From IMG/VR virus record IMGVR_UViG_2737471860_000011, positions 1 to 9,713 of that record: DNA of 9,713 bases. The stretch is one strand, 5' to 3'. The position numbers were made by a program, and so were the translations under genes. Each line of letters starts with the position of its first letter. The first letter of the stretch is position 1. The notes below the pieces were generated by a model. That model saw nothing but the letters and a program-made list of their open reading frames with translations. It did no database searches and had not been told where the DNA came from. Positions 84 to 8,474 of this stretch are shown in pieces. Origin of the DNA: a virus. Its lineage: Duplodnaviria; Heunggongvirae; Uroviricota; Caudoviricetes.

Positions 84-365
84 TTACCGCCGCAGTCGTT
101 CCGGCTTCTTCCACTGGTAAGTATTTTTCGCGCTCTCCCTCCGTTGTTGAGAACGGCGACGGTATGCCAGCAACTCAAGGACTCTGGTTCGTATGTTGCG
201 CATATCCACGCCGTTAAGCTCAATACCGTCACGGCGCATCACCTCAGCAACAACACGCGCGTAATTTTCGGCTGTCACGCTGTCCGGCTGTGTGGCCTGT
301 TCGTCATGCTGCTGGCTGATTCCGGTAACGCGGCGGATTAATCCCAGTAGTTCGGCTTCTGTCAT
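84..365 (-). CDS. Hypothetical protein (93 aa), function unknown
   Basis: ATG at 365-363 preceded by GGGGG Shine-Dalgarno 4 nt upstream; TAA stop at 86-84. Lies immediately outside the cosQ side of the left cos copy. No family recognised. Confidence 0.45.
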   Translation of the reverse strand: MTEAELLGLIRRVTGISQQHDEQATQPDSVTAENYARVVAEVMRRDGIELNGVDMRNIRTRVLELLAYRRRSQQRRESAKNTYQWKKPERLRR

Positions 366-397
366 TGTGCCCCCATCGCTCTGATAGTCTGGTGTCG

Positions 398-465
398 TCG
401 GGTCCTTCCTGGAATTATGGCCCGTTACGGGGCGGCGACCTCGCGGTTTTTCGCTATTTATGAGC
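398..465 (+). other. Lambda-type cos site, copy L (cosQ-like, cosN 430-441, start of cosB), plus orientation
   Basis: Contains GGGTCCTT...GTTACG followed by GGGCGGCGACCT and CGCGGTTTTTCGCTATTTATGA. This matches the phage lambda genome ends (right end ...GGTTACG, left end GGGCGGCGACCTCGCGGGTTTTCGCTATTTATGA) as recalled from memory. Confidence 0.75.
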
Positions 466-658
466 TTTTTTAGAGGGAGGTTGTTGTTTAATTGTTTGTC
501 ATATCCATTTGATAACTAAGTAAAAATAAAGAGCAATACAACAACCTGATAGTGTTTTTTTGATGCTAAAAATAAAAAAATGCTAATTGAATCAAATAGT
601 TTTAAAAAAATACGTGGTTGTTGTATTGCGTATTTGATGGCGTAACAGAAAGTGATTT

Positions 659-1099
659 TTAACTTTGCTGTTCTGTAACGACTGATTGTTCCATGCTGGC
701 ACGGCGAACGCTTACGGCATGACGCCACCCAGCCAGAAAGCCAGCCATTTTATTTCGTGCCTTGCTCACATCTTCCGGTGAATAGCCGTAAATCTGCAAA
801 CCTTCATCAAATCGATGTTCTGTTTCTTCACTGGAGTACTCGTCACGCTCAGATGAAAGCAGCCTGGCAAACATAATTTTTTCCAGCGCACTGGTTTCTA
901 CGTGATATCTGATGGCCTCAAGACGGCTTTTACCTGAAGACCAAAGCAATGTATGCCCGATGTGATAACCGCCAGACTTTCCGCGATCCGCATTAAGATA
1001 CGGCATCCCCTGTTTGGTCCATGCGCGAATAGTGGTTCTGTTAACCTTGAAATGTTCAGCTATTTCCTGCTGACTTACAAAACAAGCTTTATCAATCAT
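659..1099 (-). CDS. Terminase small subunit Nu1-like protein / candidate PICI Rpp-type packaging-redirection protein (146 aa)
   Basis: N-terminus SQQEIAEHFKVNRTTIRAWTKQGMPYL parallels lambda Nu1 KKQLADIFGASIRTIQNWQEQGMPV (winged HTH). ATG at 1099-1097 with AAGGT Shine-Dalgarno; start lies about 90 bp downstream of cosN copy R in the lambda cos-to-Nu1 arrangement. Confidence 0.8.
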   Translation of the reverse strand: MIDKACFVSQQEIAEHFKVNRTTIRAWTKQGMPYLNADRGKSGGYHIGHTLLWSSGKSRLEAIRYHVETSALEKIMFARLLSSERDEYSSEETEHRFDEGLQIYGYSPEDVSKARNKMAGFLAGWRHAVSVRRASMEQSVVTEQQS

Positions 1100-1165
1100 A
1101 ATGTTACCTTAACTGCATGGTTAAATATTAATCAAGTGGTGGTGGTGTCACCTTCACGGAAAAAC

Positions 1166-1233
1166 GTCATAAATAGCGAAAAACCGCGAGGTCGCCGCCC
1201 CGTAACGGGTCCATATGCCGGAAAGGACCCGCA
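1166..1233 (-). other. Lambda-type cos site, copy R (cosN 1189-1200 on minus strand), canonical position upstream of the Nu1-like gene
   Basis: Reverse complement reads GGGTCCTTTCCGG...CCCGTTACG, GGGCGGCGACCT, CGCGGTTTTTCGCTATTTATGA. About 90% identical to copy L in inverted orientation; cosN 12-mer identical to lambda. Confidence 0.8.
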
Positions 1234-1254
1234 AAAAAGCCGGATTTCTCCGGC
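1233..1254 (-). terminator. Rho-independent terminator ending the capsid-module transcript
   Basis: Minus strand reads GCCGGAGAAATCCGGC (6-bp stem, 4-nt loop) followed by TTTTTT. Located 7 nt after the stop of the 137-aa gene. Confidence 0.6.
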
Positions 1255-1260
1255 CTTGTC

Positions 1261-1674
1261 TCAGATGGTTTTCAGTATGCGATCAATGTCGCCGTCATCG
1301 CCCGGGTTTCTGCCATCGTATGCCATGCCAGCTGATACGGCTTGTGGGCTGTGCATGTCCATAAAGTTTTCAAAGGCTGCGGTAAGCTCTGGTGCAACCT
1401 TCTGGCGTTCCTGCTCTATGGTCATGTTCAGGATGTTTTTAGCCGTATCAACATCAATACAAGGCACGTTTGCCATTGCACGTAACAGCGGCTGATAGTC
1501 GTCAGATTCATGAAGCGACATAATCGCATCAGCGCGCGGCTTGTCCTGTTCTTCCAGTTTGTTAAGTTGATATATAGCTTCGTAGGTTGATAGACATCTG
1601 TCAGCCATTGCCCGCGCTTCAGCTTTAAATTTACTCGCCAGCGGTAGCGCCATGATACTTTCATTCGTTGCCAT
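1261..1674 (-). CDS. Hypothetical protein (137 aa) in capsid module; possible assembly or scaffold-like factor
   Basis: ATG at 1674-1672 with GGTGGA Shine-Dalgarno, 13 nt after the gpD-like stop. The track ORF 1261..1785 extends upstream across the gpD-like gene and is probably an over-extension. Acidic, helical-looking sequence; no family recognised. Confidence 0.55.
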   Translation of the reverse strand: MATNESIMALPLASKFKAEARAMADRCLSTYEAIYQLNKLEEQDKPRADAIMSLHESDDYQPLLRAMANVPCIDVDTAKNILNMTIEQERQKVAPELTAAFENFMDMHSPQAVSAGMAYDGRNPGDDGDIDRILKTI

Positions 1675-1687
1675 CGTTCCACCCTGC

Positions 1688-2023
1688 TTATCGCGCCAGC
1701 GGCTGAACAGATACACCAGAACCCGCAAAGGCGGCGCATTTTTTCGCGTCAGTGTCGGCGCTCTCAGGCCAGTTAACGGCGGCAATATTGAATATCCCCG
1801 TCTTGTAACACTGTGCTGACTTCTGCTTTGACGTGTCCACGGGGTACGAAGTCAGATAAACAGCCTTGCCAGATTCCTGACCATCCCACGGCTTAAACTC
1901 GCCATTGTCCGCCAGCATCAGCGGGGTAAATTCCTGAATAACGCCAGCATCAGCGGCAAAATGTACCAGTGTCGTGGATACCTGCTGACTGCCTGCAAAT
2001 AACTCAATGTATGGAGTGTCCAT
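1688..2023 (-). CDS. Head decoration protein, lambda gpD-like (111 aa)
   Basis: TPLMLADNGEFKPWDG and YKTGIFNIAAVNWPESADTDAKKCAAFAGSGVSV parallel lambda gpD TPLMLDTSSRKLVAWDG and [35 protein letters not shown]. ATG at 2023 with GGGGGA Shine-Dalgarno, 11 nt after capsid stop. Confidence 0.85.
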   Translation of the reverse strand: MDTPYIELFAGSQQVSTTLVHFAADAGVIQEFTPLMLADNGEFKPWDGQESGKAVYLTSYPVDTSKQKSAQCYKTGIFNIAAVNWPESADTDAKKCAAFAGSGVSVQPLAR

Positions 2024-2034
2024 AGAATCCCCCG

Positions 2035-3090
2035 TTAACCAATTTTGACGGTAACAAATTTGCGAATATCTGCCGGAACCGGCTGCGGTGCGCTGTGTGT
2101 CTGCACGTACTCAATCGCCGGATCGCCGTCCTCAATCCAGTTTTTCGGGTAGTACATGTTTTGCGTTGCGCCCGTTCTTACAGCTTCCTGATCCATAATC
2201 GCACCATAGGCCACCAGACCTTTGTTGTTGGTGTTGCCCAGGACCAGTAAATCAGGCTCAAGGAAATATTTTTCGGTGCCGTCGCTGTCAGTGTATTTGC
2301 CGGAATAGACGATAAGGGCAATATCGCCCAGATAGCCTTTAAAGCTCACCACTTCGCCCAGGTTTTTACAGGCCAGTTCTGCGGCGGATTCTGAACCACG
2401 GGAAAGATCGTACAGTTCGCGGAATTTTTTAAAGCTGCGTAACGTTCGCCATACCTCAGCGCCCATAATCATGACGTTGGCGGGGCAACCTGCTTGATCT
2501 GCGTATAGTTCGATATCATAGATTGGATCATGGGTTTCTTTGTCCTGCTCTGACCATTTACGGCCTTTGGCCTGCTCTATGATGTTTTTTTCCGGTATCT
2601 TCCAGTCGATTTCATAGCGTTCTATGCCTTCGCCCTCAATGATGTTTTTTCCGGTCGTTACCGCATTCACCGCCAGCCATTCCACGCGTGCCTTAATGGC
2701 GTTTATCTGGCGGCGCATGTTGCCAGTAATCAGGCGCATACGTCGGTAGGTAGGATCGTTAAGCTGTGCCGGATCTTCTCCAGCCATGCGCATGATGGTT
2801 TTTGTTGGATCGATTTCGTGCTTTGGCTTCATGTAGCCAGGTTTAATCGTGCTGGTTTCGTACCCTTTATCGCGCTGTACCTGGCTACCCACCATAGGCG
2901 AACAAAACGCAGACATGGTAACTTCTTCGGTATCCAGGTTATCCAGCATGATGTTTTGCGTGTTGAATGTCGCTACTTTCGGGAAAAACAGCGACGTAAA
3001 CAGTGGACTGAATTTAAATTCCGAAATATCCCCGCGATTCAGGTATCTGAAAAGCTGGTTAGTGTTAAGTGCCGTTGCTTTGCCTGTCAT
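2035..3090 (-). CDS. Major capsid protein, lambda gpE family (351 aa)
   Basis: KFSPLFTSLFFP, KPGYMKPKHEIDP, DPTYRRMRLITGNMRRQ and C-terminal YPKNWIEDGDPA match lambda gpE (KFDPLFLRLFFR, TPGYVKPKHEVNP, DPAYRRRRIIMQNMRDE, YPKNWVTTGDPA). Strong GGAGGTG Shine-Dalgarno 4 nt before ATG at 3090. Confidence 0.9.
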   Translation of the reverse strand: MTGKATALNTNQLFRYLNRGDISEFKFSPLFTSLFFPKVATFNTQNIMLDNLDTEEVTMSAFCSPMVGSQVQRDKGYETSTIKPGYMKPKHEIDPTKTIMRMAGEDPAQLNDPTYRRMRLITGNMRRQINAIKARVEWLAVNAVTTGKNIIEGEGIERYEIDWKIPEKNIIEQAKGRKWSEQDKETHDPIYDIELYADQAGCPANVMIMGAEVWRTLRSFKKFRELYDLSRGSESAAELACKNLGEVVSFKGYLGDIALIVYSGKYTDSDGTEKYFLEPDLLVLGNTNNKGLVAYGAIMDQEAVRTGATQNMYYPKNWIEDGDPAIEYVQTHSAPQPVPADIRKFVTVKIG

Positions 3091-3296
3091 TATTCACCTC
3101 CATGAGTCTGATTCATGCCCAGCGCCGCACGTAAATAGGCGCGTACCTGCCAGCCTGTTGACGGCTCAACCATCGCCAGCGGCTCAAGTCCTGCCGCAAT
3201 GCCTGCTTTTACGTTCTGCTGGTGGCGTTCCTTGAGCGCCTCCACGATGTCTGGGCTTATGTAAACTGTCACCCCGCCTTTTTTCTCTTCTGCCAT
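3090..3296 (-). CDS. Hypothetical small protein (68 aa) translationally coupled to the major capsid gene
   Basis: ATG at 3296 with AGAGGA Shine-Dalgarno about 10 nt upstream; its TAA stop overlaps the capsid ATG (TAATG). The track ORF begins at a GTG (3329) inside the promoter palindrome, which is less likely. Function unknown. Confidence 0.45.
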   Translation of the reverse strand: MAEEKKGGVTVYISPDIVEALKERHQQNVKAGIAAGLEPLAMVEPSTGWQVRAYLRAALGMNQTHGGE

Positions 3297-3324
3297 AGTC
3301 GGAAATTCCTCTTTGACGTTAAAA

Positions 3325-3380
3325 ATCACAACTGGATGTTCATCCAGTTGTGATTATAATCATGATTTCATTTTACGCAA
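3325..3380 (-). promoter_or_regulatory. Candidate sigma70 promoter of the capsid module overlapped by a 30-bp perfect palindrome operator
   Basis: Minus strand: -35 TTGCGT (3380-3375), 16-bp spacer, -10 TATAAT (3358-3353). Palindrome ATCACAACTGGATG-tt-CATCCAGTTGTGAT (3325-3354) abuts the -10 and covers the predicted start site; its core is CTG-N10-CAG. Confidence 0.5.
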
Positions 3381-3465
3381 TAATGTTTGGTTGTGTTGCA
3401 AATTGTGAAATGATTTGCGGCAACAGTAGTCACCATACTGTTAGATAAAAGCCTCATATGCAAAA

Positions 3466-3502
3466 GCCCGATAAGACCCTCTGACCTTATCGGGCTTTTT
3501 TT
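3466..3502 (+). terminator. Strong rho-independent terminator (bidirectional potential) between SSB and capsid modules
   Basis: GCCCGATAAG / CTTATCGGGC 10-bp stem with 10-nt loop followed by TTTTTTT on the plus strand; preceded by AAAA, giving a 4-U tail on the minus strand. Confidence 0.65.
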
Positions 3503-3509
3503 GGGGCAT

Positions 3510-3531
3510 AAAAAAGCCGAACTTCTCCGGC
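3510..3531 (-). terminator. Rho-independent terminator after the SSB gene
   Basis: Minus strand GCCGGAGAAGTTCGGC (imperfect stem) followed by TTTTTT. About 20 of 22 nt identical to the terminator at 1233-1254. Confidence 0.5.
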
Positions 3532-3547
3532 TTCTGTTACTCATTGC

Positions 3548-3970: not shown

Positions 3971-4033
3971 GCTGTCTGTTCTCCGGTTTTAACGTTGATA
4001 GTTACGCTTGTTTACACCCTTACGGTGAAATTC

Positions 4034-4158
4034 TGCGGGTTATAATCGCACTTTTGCGGGTTATAACTGCCATTTTGCGGGTTACGTGCGGGTTATTGAT
4101 TTCCTTTTTATTCATACAGTTAATTCACTTATACACAGGATAACCCGCATAACCCGCA
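4034..4158. repeat. Iteron array, putative replication origin
   Basis: Direct repeats of TGCGGGTTAT/C at 4034-4043, 4055-4064, 4076-4085 (21-bp phasing) and 4087-4096; AT-rich spacer 4097-4139; two inverted copies ATAACCCGCA at 4140-4149 and 4149-4158. Immediately 3' of the primase-helicase gene. Confidence 0.7.
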
Positions 4159-4181
4159 ACTTTTCACCTCACACAGGGTAG

Positions 4182-6607: not shown

Positions 6608-6928
6608 TTATCCCCGATTTGAATCAGTATTCGCTTTCTTTATGGCATTTAACGCATCTGTGGCATTTTCAATGGTGCACCGTAACGAAATATCAAACTG
6701 CCCAAGCATTGTCAGTAACAAACCGATATTCCCCATGTCAATGCGCATAGCCTTTTCGTCATATTCCTTATTTTCTGACGCATACCACATCAGGCTACCA
6801 ATTGACGCAACAGCCATTGATATATTGTCAGTAGCCGCATCCGCAGCAGAATAAACCTTTTTAGCAATATCATGCTCACAGTTAAAATGCGGATTAATCA
6901 GGTACTGGTAATTTGACATATCAGGCAT
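6608..6928 (-). CDS. Hypothetical protein (106 aa)
   Basis: ATG at 6928 with GGGGG Shine-Dalgarno; 6-nt gap to the next gene. Low-GC like its neighbour. No family recognised. Confidence 0.55.
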   Translation of the reverse strand: MPDMSNYQYLINPHFNCEHDIAKKVYSAADAATDNISMAVASIGSLMWYASENKEYDEKAMRIDMGNIGLLLTMLGQFDISLRCTIENATDALNAIKKANTDSNRG

Positions 6929-7124
6929 GGCACACCCCCTGACGAATACGGGCAGCGAATACCATCACGCAGCCAGCCGGGGATTGCTGGCGTGCTTCCT
7001 GTTCGCTGCTGGCCTCAATGGTAATCACGCGCGGTTGTGCCGTACTCAGGGCGATAAAACGCCAGATGTATTTATTCAGGTTGTGCGAGTCCAGCCCTTG
7101 CGGGTGTGTGGTATGATTTCTCAT
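6921..7124 (-). CDS. Hypothetical small protein (67 aa), first gene of the replication operon
   Basis: ATG at 7124 with GAGGT Shine-Dalgarno 5 nt upstream; 8-nt overlap with the next gene start. The track ORF 6921..7862 (313 aa) is rejected as one CDS; only the 3' 68 codons have a ribosome-binding site and sit downstream of the promoter. Confidence 0.4.
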   Translation of the reverse strand: MRNHTTHPQGLDSHNLNKYIWRFIALSTAQPRVITIEASSEQEARQQSPAGCVMVFAARIRQGVCHA

Positions 7125-7222
7125 AGCTACCTCGATACTCTTGCTATCGTTGGTGGTTAGACGCCCTGCATGTGTTGCGAGCACTGCGGGGCGTTGCTTA
7201 ATTTGAGTGACAAAACTCAAAC

Positions 7223-7302
7223 TGTGCGCACAGATTAAAATCATGTGTGCGCACATGTCAATACTTAACATCTCATTTTTTTTGCTGTATTGTGTGCGCC
7301 CA
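7223..7302. promoter_or_regulatory. Divergent promoter region with three operator palindromes (TGTGCGCACA)
   Basis: Perfect 10-bp palindrome at 7223-7232 and 7246-7255; one-mismatch copy TGTGCGCCCA at 7293-7302. Minus-strand promoter: -35 TTGACA (7261-7256), 16-bp spacer containing O2, -10 TTTAAT (7239-7234), with O1 at about +1. Plus-strand promoter: -35 TTAACA (7265-7270), 17 bp, -10 TATTGT (7288-7293), with O3 over -10/+1. Confidence 0.6.
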
Positions 7303-7329
7303 TAAAGTCCATTTAAGTGAGGTGCATCA

Positions 7330-7527
7330 ATGTCTAGCGGTAACACAAACAACAAATCAGCAAAGAAAAATATTCGATTCCCACATGAGCTTATAGATGG
7401 GATTGATGCCAGCGTTGAACAAGAAAAATTAACTAATCCTAGTGCTAATTTTTCCGCATGGGTCTTAGATGCCTGTGGACGCAAATTAAAATATGAACAG
7501 CGCCGGAAGGCCAAAGAATCAGAATAA
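7330..7527 (+). CDS. Arc/Mnt-like ribbon-helix-helix transcriptional regulator (65 aa), candidate repressor of the replication operon
   Basis: NIRFPHELIDGIDASVEQE...NFSAWVLDACGRKL parallels P22 Arc NLRWPREVLDLVRKVAEENGRSVNSEIYQRVMESF (beta-strand then two helices). GAGGTG Shine-Dalgarno 6 nt before ATG; divergent from the operon across the operator palindromes. Confidence 0.65.
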   Translation: MSSGNTNNKSAKKNIRFPHELIDGIDASVEQEKLTNPSANFSAWVLDACGRKLKYEQRRKAKESE

Positions 7528-7584
7528 TCACTATCAGCGCCGTGGTGTGAGTAACTACGGCGCATTGCTATGCAGGACAACACA

Positions 7585-7758
7585 ATGACCGATAAAGAAT
7601 TGACCAAAACATTATCACCGGCACGGAAAAGACGGCGCAGAAAGATAGAGCATGAATCAGAAAGATTCGCACCTTGTTCGTTTGCTCTTGAGAAATTCCT
7701 TAAAGAGCACAGGAAAAAGCTCTCGTTGCAAACCTTGGGACGAACCAAATCTGACTGA
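7585..7758 (+). CDS. Hypothetical small arginine-rich protein (57 aa from ATG 7585; track ORF starts at 7570)
   Basis: AGGA about 8 nt before ATG 7585; contains ARKRRRRK. Sits between the RHH gene and a plus-strand terminator. Weak support overall. Confidence 0.3.
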   Translation: MTDKELTKTLSPARKRRRRKIEHESERFAPCSFALEKFLKEHRKKLSLQTLGRTKSD

Positions 7759-7825
7759 TCACATTGCCCACCAGCCGCAAATGTGGCATTGTTGGTGATG
7801 CGTTCAAGTTTAGTGTGTATCCATT

Positions 7826-7851
7826 GGCGACCGCCCCCGGTCGCCTTTGTT
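7826..7851 (+). terminator. Rho-independent terminator of the plus-strand regulatory transcript
   Basis: GGCGACC gccccc GGTCGCC hairpin followed by TTTGTTATATAT on the plus strand; no U-tract on the minus strand. Confidence 0.6.
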
Positions 7852-7872
7852 ATATATGTCATATGCTCCCCT

Positions 7873-8082
7873 TTACGCTGCCTTACCTGAATTAATGCGA
7901 TCCCGGCTTTTAACCCATTCCATAACCTCGGACAGCAGCCAACCTACAGAACGCCCACCAAGATTACGGCGAGACGGAAAGCTCCCTTTTTTCTCCAGTT
8001 CGTAGCGTGTAGTGCGACACACTCCAGTTAACTTACGACATTCATCCTCACGGATTACGCGATCTTCATTTATTTCACGCAT
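7873..8082 (-). CDS. alpA: AlpA / P4 Vis-family transcriptional regulator (69 aa; track ORF extends to a GTG at 8169)
   Basis: ECRKLTGVCRTTRYELEKKGSFPSRRNLGGRSVGWLLSEVMEWV matches the AlpA pattern (HTH, then KxGxFP...LGGRSV.W...E...W). ATG at 8082 with AGGT Shine-Dalgarno; adjacent to and co-directional with the integrase. Confidence 0.8.
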   Translation of the reverse strand: MREINEDRVIREDECRKLTGVCRTTRYELEKKGSFPSRRNLGGRSVGWLLSEVMEWVKSRDRINSGKAA

Positions 8083-8474
8083 ACAAAAACCTACATAAAA
8101 ATTACGTATATAAACTTTTCTCTTAGCTGTAGATATATGAGATCGGATATTACTTAGATTCTTTTTCACCTCTTAAATTAAAAACACAACCATGCTAAAG
8201 GCTTTGTTCGCTAAGGTTCGTAGAAGCTCGTTAGTGTTTAAAATCGTGTCACGAGTTTTTAAGCGACGCAACAAAAAAATGTCTTCATTTTGCATGACAC
8301 TTGAATTATCTCATTAAAAACAAATAGATAAACCATCAAGTGTTGGAACAATCAAGAAACAGAGAATAAAAACCCAGAAGACGACATTCCAATTAAGATA
8401 TTTGCAGATATTTTCCGATATTCTACGATTTATTCACGGCTGTAATCTCTTAAAGAAAAAACAGCCGTAATTTG

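Follow-up and report, generated by a model that had tools for sequence, protein, structure and literature searches.

The closest described relatives of the gene considered here are the Rpp proteins of Gram-negative PICIs, among them RppA of EcCICFT073 (ORF c1503, PMC6739421), RppB and RppC. Rpp dimerises and binds the helper TerS, with which it forms a heterodimer (Fillol-Salom et al. 2019, PMC6739421; PMC6092414). This hybrid fails to support the recognition of the phage cosB, with the result that plaques are blocked, and it directs the terminase to cos1 of the island and promotes the transfer of cos1 plasmids, which needs both the cos1 cosB and R21/T22; the helper TerS is still essential (PMC6739421, PMC6092414). 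The binding of TerS, the block of helper plaques and the need for Rpp in island transfer were demonstrated for RppA and RppC (PMC6739421). The residues of RppA that were mutated, with roles either shown or proposed, are R21 and T22 in cos1 recognition, L51 in the contact with TerS, and F121 in the homodimer (PMC6739421). Murialdo and Feiss argue that TerS provides the TerL-binding domain that is missing from Rpp (PMC9026076). The SaPI proteins TerS-S and Ppi likewise divert the helper terminase to satellite DNA and block phage packaging (PMC6739421), but in SaPIs the task is divided between two proteins (a TerS of the island and the inhibitor Ppi) and packaging is headful, from pac, whereas a single protein, Rpp, combines the two functions and acts in cos packaging.

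Concerning the packaging sites, EcCICFT073 has two of them. The first, cos1, is required for transfer, and the deletion of cos2 raises the transfer mediated by lambda and by phi80; the authors of that work could not identify a phage cosB in the island and asked why there should be two cos sites (PMC6739421, PMC6092414).

The stretch of DNA studied here (the window, 9,713 nucleotides) is 100% identical to L007:653-10365, and the same holds for two further E. coli contigs; in those contigs the island sits between cspD and clpS. The reverse strand of positions 659-1278 reproduces almost base for base the cos1-rppA segment of EcCICFT073, and the features recognized there are the following:

659..1099, minus strand: rpp, RppA allele, ATG start, 146 aa (from the ORF list and homology).
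1100..1188, minus strand: cosB of cos1, island-specific, with one base different from EcCICFT073 cos1.
1128-1148, minus strand: cosB box of cos1, ACACCACCACCACTTGATTAA, bp 53-73 from the cohesive end.
1136-1153, minus strand: proposed R3-PICI, bp 48-65 (positions after PMC9026076).
1189..1200, minus strand: cohesive end of cos1, GGGCGGCGACCT, the core of cosN, identical to lambda.
1220..1235, minus strand: cosQ-like element of cos1, TTTGCGGGTCCTTTCC, read from the sequence and aligned with lambda cosQ.

For comparison, EcCICFT073 was located in the CFT073 chromosome (L006). Its 144-aa gene was taken as RppA because residues 1-50 are those of the RppA sequence printed in Fig. S1C of PMC6739421, and because the printed cos1 sequence leads into the start codon of this gene. 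The product of ORF 659-1099 shares 142 of 144 residues with this protein, encoded at the same position of the island (E = 2e-110), and the differences are confined to the last few residues, where the tail reads SVVTEQQS instead of SADTEQ and is two residues longer. The residues R21, T22, L51 and F121 are all kept at their RppA positions. A sequence search of the PDB matched RppC (6HLK) at E = 5.7e-31 over residues 2-125, and returned also 6HN7, the structure of RppC with the N-terminal domain of lambda TerS. RppC is a clear homologue, with R21, T22 and R25 of helix alpha2 conserved, although more diverged from the window protein than RppA. A single-sequence AlphaFold model of the 146-aa protein was too poor (mean pLDDT 50.6) to be of use, so its fold rests on the homology to the RppC crystal structure. 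The length of 146 aa lies within the Rpp range of about 135-154 aa. Considering all this, the product of ORF 659-1099 has all the features by which the Rpp family is defined, as far as these can be checked on sequence, and it can be held with near certainty to be the RppA of a PICI of the EcCICFT073 family, integrated at cspD/clpS in E. coli. The initial annotation, made from the window alone, had suggested a protein of a satellite, comparable to the Rpp of Gram-negative PICIs, and this is right, as shown by the match to RppA and by the cos1 and gene order in common with EcCICFT073; it is not new, since both the protein and the kind of island were already known.

The exact protein occurs on 976 contigs of a public collection, under the names 'hypothetical protein' or 'helix-turn-helix domain-containing protein', which are the labels that it still has in the NCBI annotation and in other public sources. 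Scans with Pfam and NCBIfam gave only generic HTH matches, all of them sub-threshold, which speak neither for nor against the assignment to Rpp; these databases appear to hold no Rpp model.

The likeness to the small terminase is limited to the N-terminus. BLASTP against lambda Nu1 (181 aa) gave 19/64 identities with E = 3e-6, restricted to residues 8-71; the PHROG 'terminase small subunit' profile phrog_57 covered only residues 7-47 (E = 4.2e-8), and 6hn7_B and 1j9i_A, which are PDB chains of the N-terminal domain of lambda TerS, were matched weakly (E = 0.08-0.13). An alignment with five TerS proteins revealed no counterpart of their C-terminal domain in the 146-aa protein, which is predicted to consist of an N-terminal winged-HTH like that of TerS/Nu1 and a C-terminal helical dimerisation part, without the TerL-binding tail. 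Both the Nu1-like DNA-binding signature and the shorter length put forward in the initial annotation are therefore correct, and the structural similarity on which it had made its proposal depend was found, by sequence searches, to RppC and to the N-terminal part of Nu1. Like lambda gpNu1 and lambdoid TerS, the rpp product has the winged-HTH N-terminus and its gene comes directly after cosQ-cosN-cosB. In contrast to gpNu1, it is 35 residues shorter, lacks the C-terminal region of oligomerisation and TerL binding, has no adjacent terL and recognises a different cosB (PMC9026076).

Other identities for ORF 659-1099, as a genuine TerS and as a regulator or excisionase, were considered and rejected. 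That it could serve the island as a MerR/Xis-type HTH regulator or excisionase and take no part in packaging is very improbable. The Pfam matches to HTH_17, MerR_1 and HTH_28, the reported resemblance of the RppC fold to MerR-type regulators (PMC6739421) and a promoter-like site that overlaps the cos1 cosB box would agree with such a role, but the matches are weak and all under the curated cut-offs, and such sites are no commoner than chance (a scan for promoters and terminators around rpp gave nothing above chance). Moreover, the gene at 7873-8169 already provides the island with an AlpA-type regulator, and direct genetic and structural evidence of a role in packaging exists for a 99%-identical protein; in addition to that role, autoregulation at the cos1 box is conceivable. 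Even less probable is an ordinary, somewhat short TerS of a degraded lambdoid prophage, acting with its own large terminase: the first 40-60 residues are Nu1/TerS-like and a lambda-type cosN immediately precedes the gene, an arrangement which phages have for terS, but the similarity ends after the DNA-binding domain, without the full-length homology or the neighbouring terL of a Nu1-type TerS, neither the ~11-kb island nor the 1.3 kb that follow the window contain a terL, and the protein is 99% identical to one shown to need the helper TerS.

The absence of a large terminase was an observation of the initial annotation which depended on what lay past the window. None of the long ORFs of the window is a terminase, and the L007 sequence that continues from it reaches the candidate attR and clpS after only ~1.3 kb; in this interval, between the 93-aa gene and attR, no gene is called and no ORF is convincing. 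Since the island ends there, no large terminase is hidden beyond the window. The limits of the island were set by one repeat:

L007:606-629 and 11612-11635: candidate att repeat, GGTGTAGTTAATGGTGTAGTTAAT, defining an island of ~11 kb.

Along the island the genes run int, alpA, Icd-like, DUF4222, DUF927 primase, SSB, 68-aa, lambda-E-like capsid, lambda-D-like decoration, 137-aa, rpp and 93-aa. Taking as PICIs the att-flanked islands of ~10-12 kb with int, alpA, primase/replication and packaging genes and without terminase, tail or lysis genes, this is a Gram-negative PICI of the EcCICFT073 type by its size, int, alpA, primase, packaging module and candidate att repeats. The capsid, decoration, 137-aa and 93-aa neighbours and cos1 are common with EcCICFT073, as is the order int-alpA-primase-SSB-capsid-decoration-137 aa-rpp-93 aa, and the capsid and packaging block from rpp through the capsid genes (663-3532) is 94% identical to it. 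On the other hand, EcCICFT073 is integrated at roxA/phoQ with another integrase (~79% identical), while the present island sits at cspD/clpS and has a DUF927 primase, of another family than the CFT073 primase. These comparisons make the island a relative of EcCICFT073 with a mosaic composition.

Several other observations concern the gene content. The capsid gene is at 2035-3090 and the decoration gene at 1688-2023; in published work, the genes for capsid and decoration were deleted in order to examine phage interference. The 68-aa and 137-aa proteins are also encoded in 1261-3296, and the latter, which matches weakly the C-terminal part of the head maturation protease profile phrog_53 (E = 2.6e-8), is possibly a Nu3-like scaffold. 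Iteron-like repeats with the core GCGGGTTAT lie at 4024-4168, close behind the primase gene, and probably mark the replication origin; another small group of repeats with this core is found outside the window, at L007:10774-10815, in the gene-free 1.3 kb before attR. The 313-aa ORF at 6921-7862 (minus strand) is probably an over-extended call, although the full 313 aa are called in some public annotations: only its last 44 residues match a model, that of an Icd-like cell-division inhibitor, and a YlcI/YnfO-family gene (7330-7527, plus strand) runs antisense within it. The 93-aa ORF at 84-365 (minus strand; phrog_1561) is conserved, and adjoins cos2 in all the related PICIs examined that have the region annotated. 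A close relative of the island in E. coli E47 (L003:5200-6900), at the same integration site and 96% identical elsewhere, has cos1-rpp replaced by another packaging module, in which a single cos is followed by a 69-aa gene and a gene for a 180-aa 'terminase small subunit', and its cos2 is truncated within cosN.

Turning to cos1, the window sequence agrees also with the EcCICFT073 cos1 printed in the supplement of PMC6739421. The cohesive end is that of lambda, but the cosB is different from lambda cosB; its coordinates, 1100-1188, had been given correctly in the initial annotation. The box ACACCACCACCACTTGATTAA spans the proposed R3-PICI, and the ATG of rpp is at bp 102, counted from the first base of the cohesive end, the same distance as the start codon of PICI-C (PMC9026076). 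Two other diverged PICIs, L018 and L019, keep the box, also where the cosN type is different. In the case of L019, a PICI with an RppB-like protein, cos1 and cos2 alike (L019:2412-2500 and L019:3105-3320) have a non-lambda cosN (GGGGGT...ACGCGCAAAAACGCGC), which is that of prophages L014 and L020, and the cos1 cosB box is unchanged. This indicates that the cosN type follows the helper, while the Rpp box stays the same.

From this near-identity, cos1 (1100-1235) and rpp of the window can be inferred to make the same functional unit as in EcCICFT073. When a lambda-like helper develops, Rpp would bind TerS/Nu1 by means of its TerS-like winged-HTH domain and its C-terminal helices. The mixed complex would lose the recognition of the phage cosB, thus blocking phage packaging, and would read instead the island cosB in cos1. 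The TerS partner would recruit the helper large terminase, which would cut the lambda-type cosN, and the island concatemers would then be packaged into phage-sized heads. The initial annotation had left it that the protein either pairs with the helper TerS or replaces it; the pairing stands and the replacement does not, because in the published work Rpp still requires TerS (PMC6739421, PMC6092414).

The other side of rpp holds a second cos site, inverted with respect to the first, as is also the case downstream of rpp in EcCICFT073. Its features are the following:

394..409, plus strand: cosQ-like element of cos2, GTCGTCGGGTCCTTCC.
430..441, plus strand: cohesive end of cos2, GGGCGGCGACCT, inverted relative to cos1.
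399-470 and 1160-1231: 72-nt inverted repeat, which contains the cos2 cohesive end.
442..650, plus strand: phage-type cosB of cos2, with three GGTTGTTGT boxes.
479-487 (plus), 538-546 (minus) and 616-624 (plus): the GGTTGTTGT boxes, within the cos2 cosB.

The orientation of cos2 is such that it converges on rpp. The sequence GGTTGTTGT is present in three copies in the window, all of them in the cos2 cosB, against 0.12 expected, and the first of them occupies the position of lambda R3 (bp 50 from the cohesive end). A 190-nt segment of this cosB matched 299 complete E. coli genomes, some 240 of them at 60-80% identity, and in the five matches of this range that were examined (5/5) the homologous sequence was located in a lambdoid prophage, directly upstream of a 168-aa terS followed by terL. 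The 168-aa prophage TerS is a full-length homologue of Nu1 (37% identical). The cos2 of three PICIs was aligned with the homologous segment of the five prophages with GGTTGTTGT-type cosB which were compared (L013, 4920-5215; L014; L020-L022), and in these eight sequences the three boxes and an intervening block do not vary or hardly vary, two of the prophages each having one change in the third box. The homology between PICIs and prophages stops at the terS ribosome-binding site in the latter and at the 3' end of rpp in the former. A search of a phage collection with the cos2 cosB gave no match beyond cosN; it was only in the complete genomes of E. coli, in their prophages, that homologues were found. 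The homology of cos2 to prophage cosB is thus a direct result.

The cos2 cosB of EcCICFT073 is of a completely different sequence. Window 472-658 and L006:13098-13300 are unrelated, while the DNA on either side is 85-99% identical, as in a swap of cosB. The EcCICFT073 cos2 has another set of boxes, CATGTCCGG and CCGGACATG, and matches another group of prophages (L015, L016), whose TerS has the C-terminal half in common with that of the first group and a different N-terminal DNA-binding domain. In the terS genes L013:5192-5698 and L016:3662-4171, the C-terminal half of ~90 residues is almost identical between the two classes, and the N-terminal DNA-binding domains vary in step with the cosB boxes. 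In the alignment, both classes of prophage TerS lack the stretch that matches residues ~47-56 of lambda Nu1, including Y50, which is a published position of escape from RppC; this absence hints that Rpp may not bind these two classes.

It is possible, though we hold it only tentatively and at somewhat less than even chances, that cos2 is a complete helper-type cos, with cosQ, cosN and an R3-R2-R1-like cosB that matches one class of prophages, so that the island would have two entry sites with differing logic: cos1 read by Rpp-TerS hybrids and cos2 read directly by the matching helper TerS, with the cos2 cosB exchanged between islands and tracking helper specificity. The part played by cos2 as an Rpp-independent packaging site is something that we infer from its sequence. 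This is the reading that we prefer, and according to it a matching helper TerS would read cos2 without Rpp and the range of helpers would be wider. A competition between the two opposed cos sites would fit the published rise in lambda transfer after deletion of cos2. Under the exchange of cosB, the window box type GGTTGTTGT and the EcCICFT073 type CATGTCCGG would represent different classes of boxes, and some islands would have lost rpp and kept two phage-type cos sites. In E. coli SCU-172 (L001:6300-6962, same att site), rpp is lost except for ~75 nt of its 3' end. On either side of this remnant there is a phage-type cos site, the two being inverted with respect to each other and belonging to the two different box classes; this cassette of 606 nt was found again, with an identity of 97-100%, in about 11-14 of the 5,426 complete genomes.

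Alternatively, cos2 could be a terminase decoy which serves for interference, or an inherited relic. The conservation of the boxes across diverged PICIs speaks against a pure relic.

Concerning cos2 as a helper-type cos, no statement was found in the literature searched, and it may be described elsewhere; the observation may be new. The nearest published precedent is the helper-embedded PICI 11capE, which at the position of cos has 258 bp (90%) in common with its helper prophage, and so provides an example of a PICI with a long helper-type cos stretch like that of the window cos2; the text consulted makes no mention of an Rpp-type cos1, of repeated R boxes or of differing TerS classes (PMC10111431).

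As to what these results mean, the gene at 659-1099 is one more copy of a characterised satellite protein, and rpp would be a suitable name for it. More important than this identification is the observation on cos2. Its homology to prophage cosB offers a testable answer to the published question of the two cos sites. If our preferred reading of cos2 as a directly read helper-type cos is true, the islands hedge between two ways of stealing the helper terminase, and the cos2 boxes of a PICI could reveal which helpers it is able to use, which would bear on the spread of virulence islands and on engineered PICI 'drones'.
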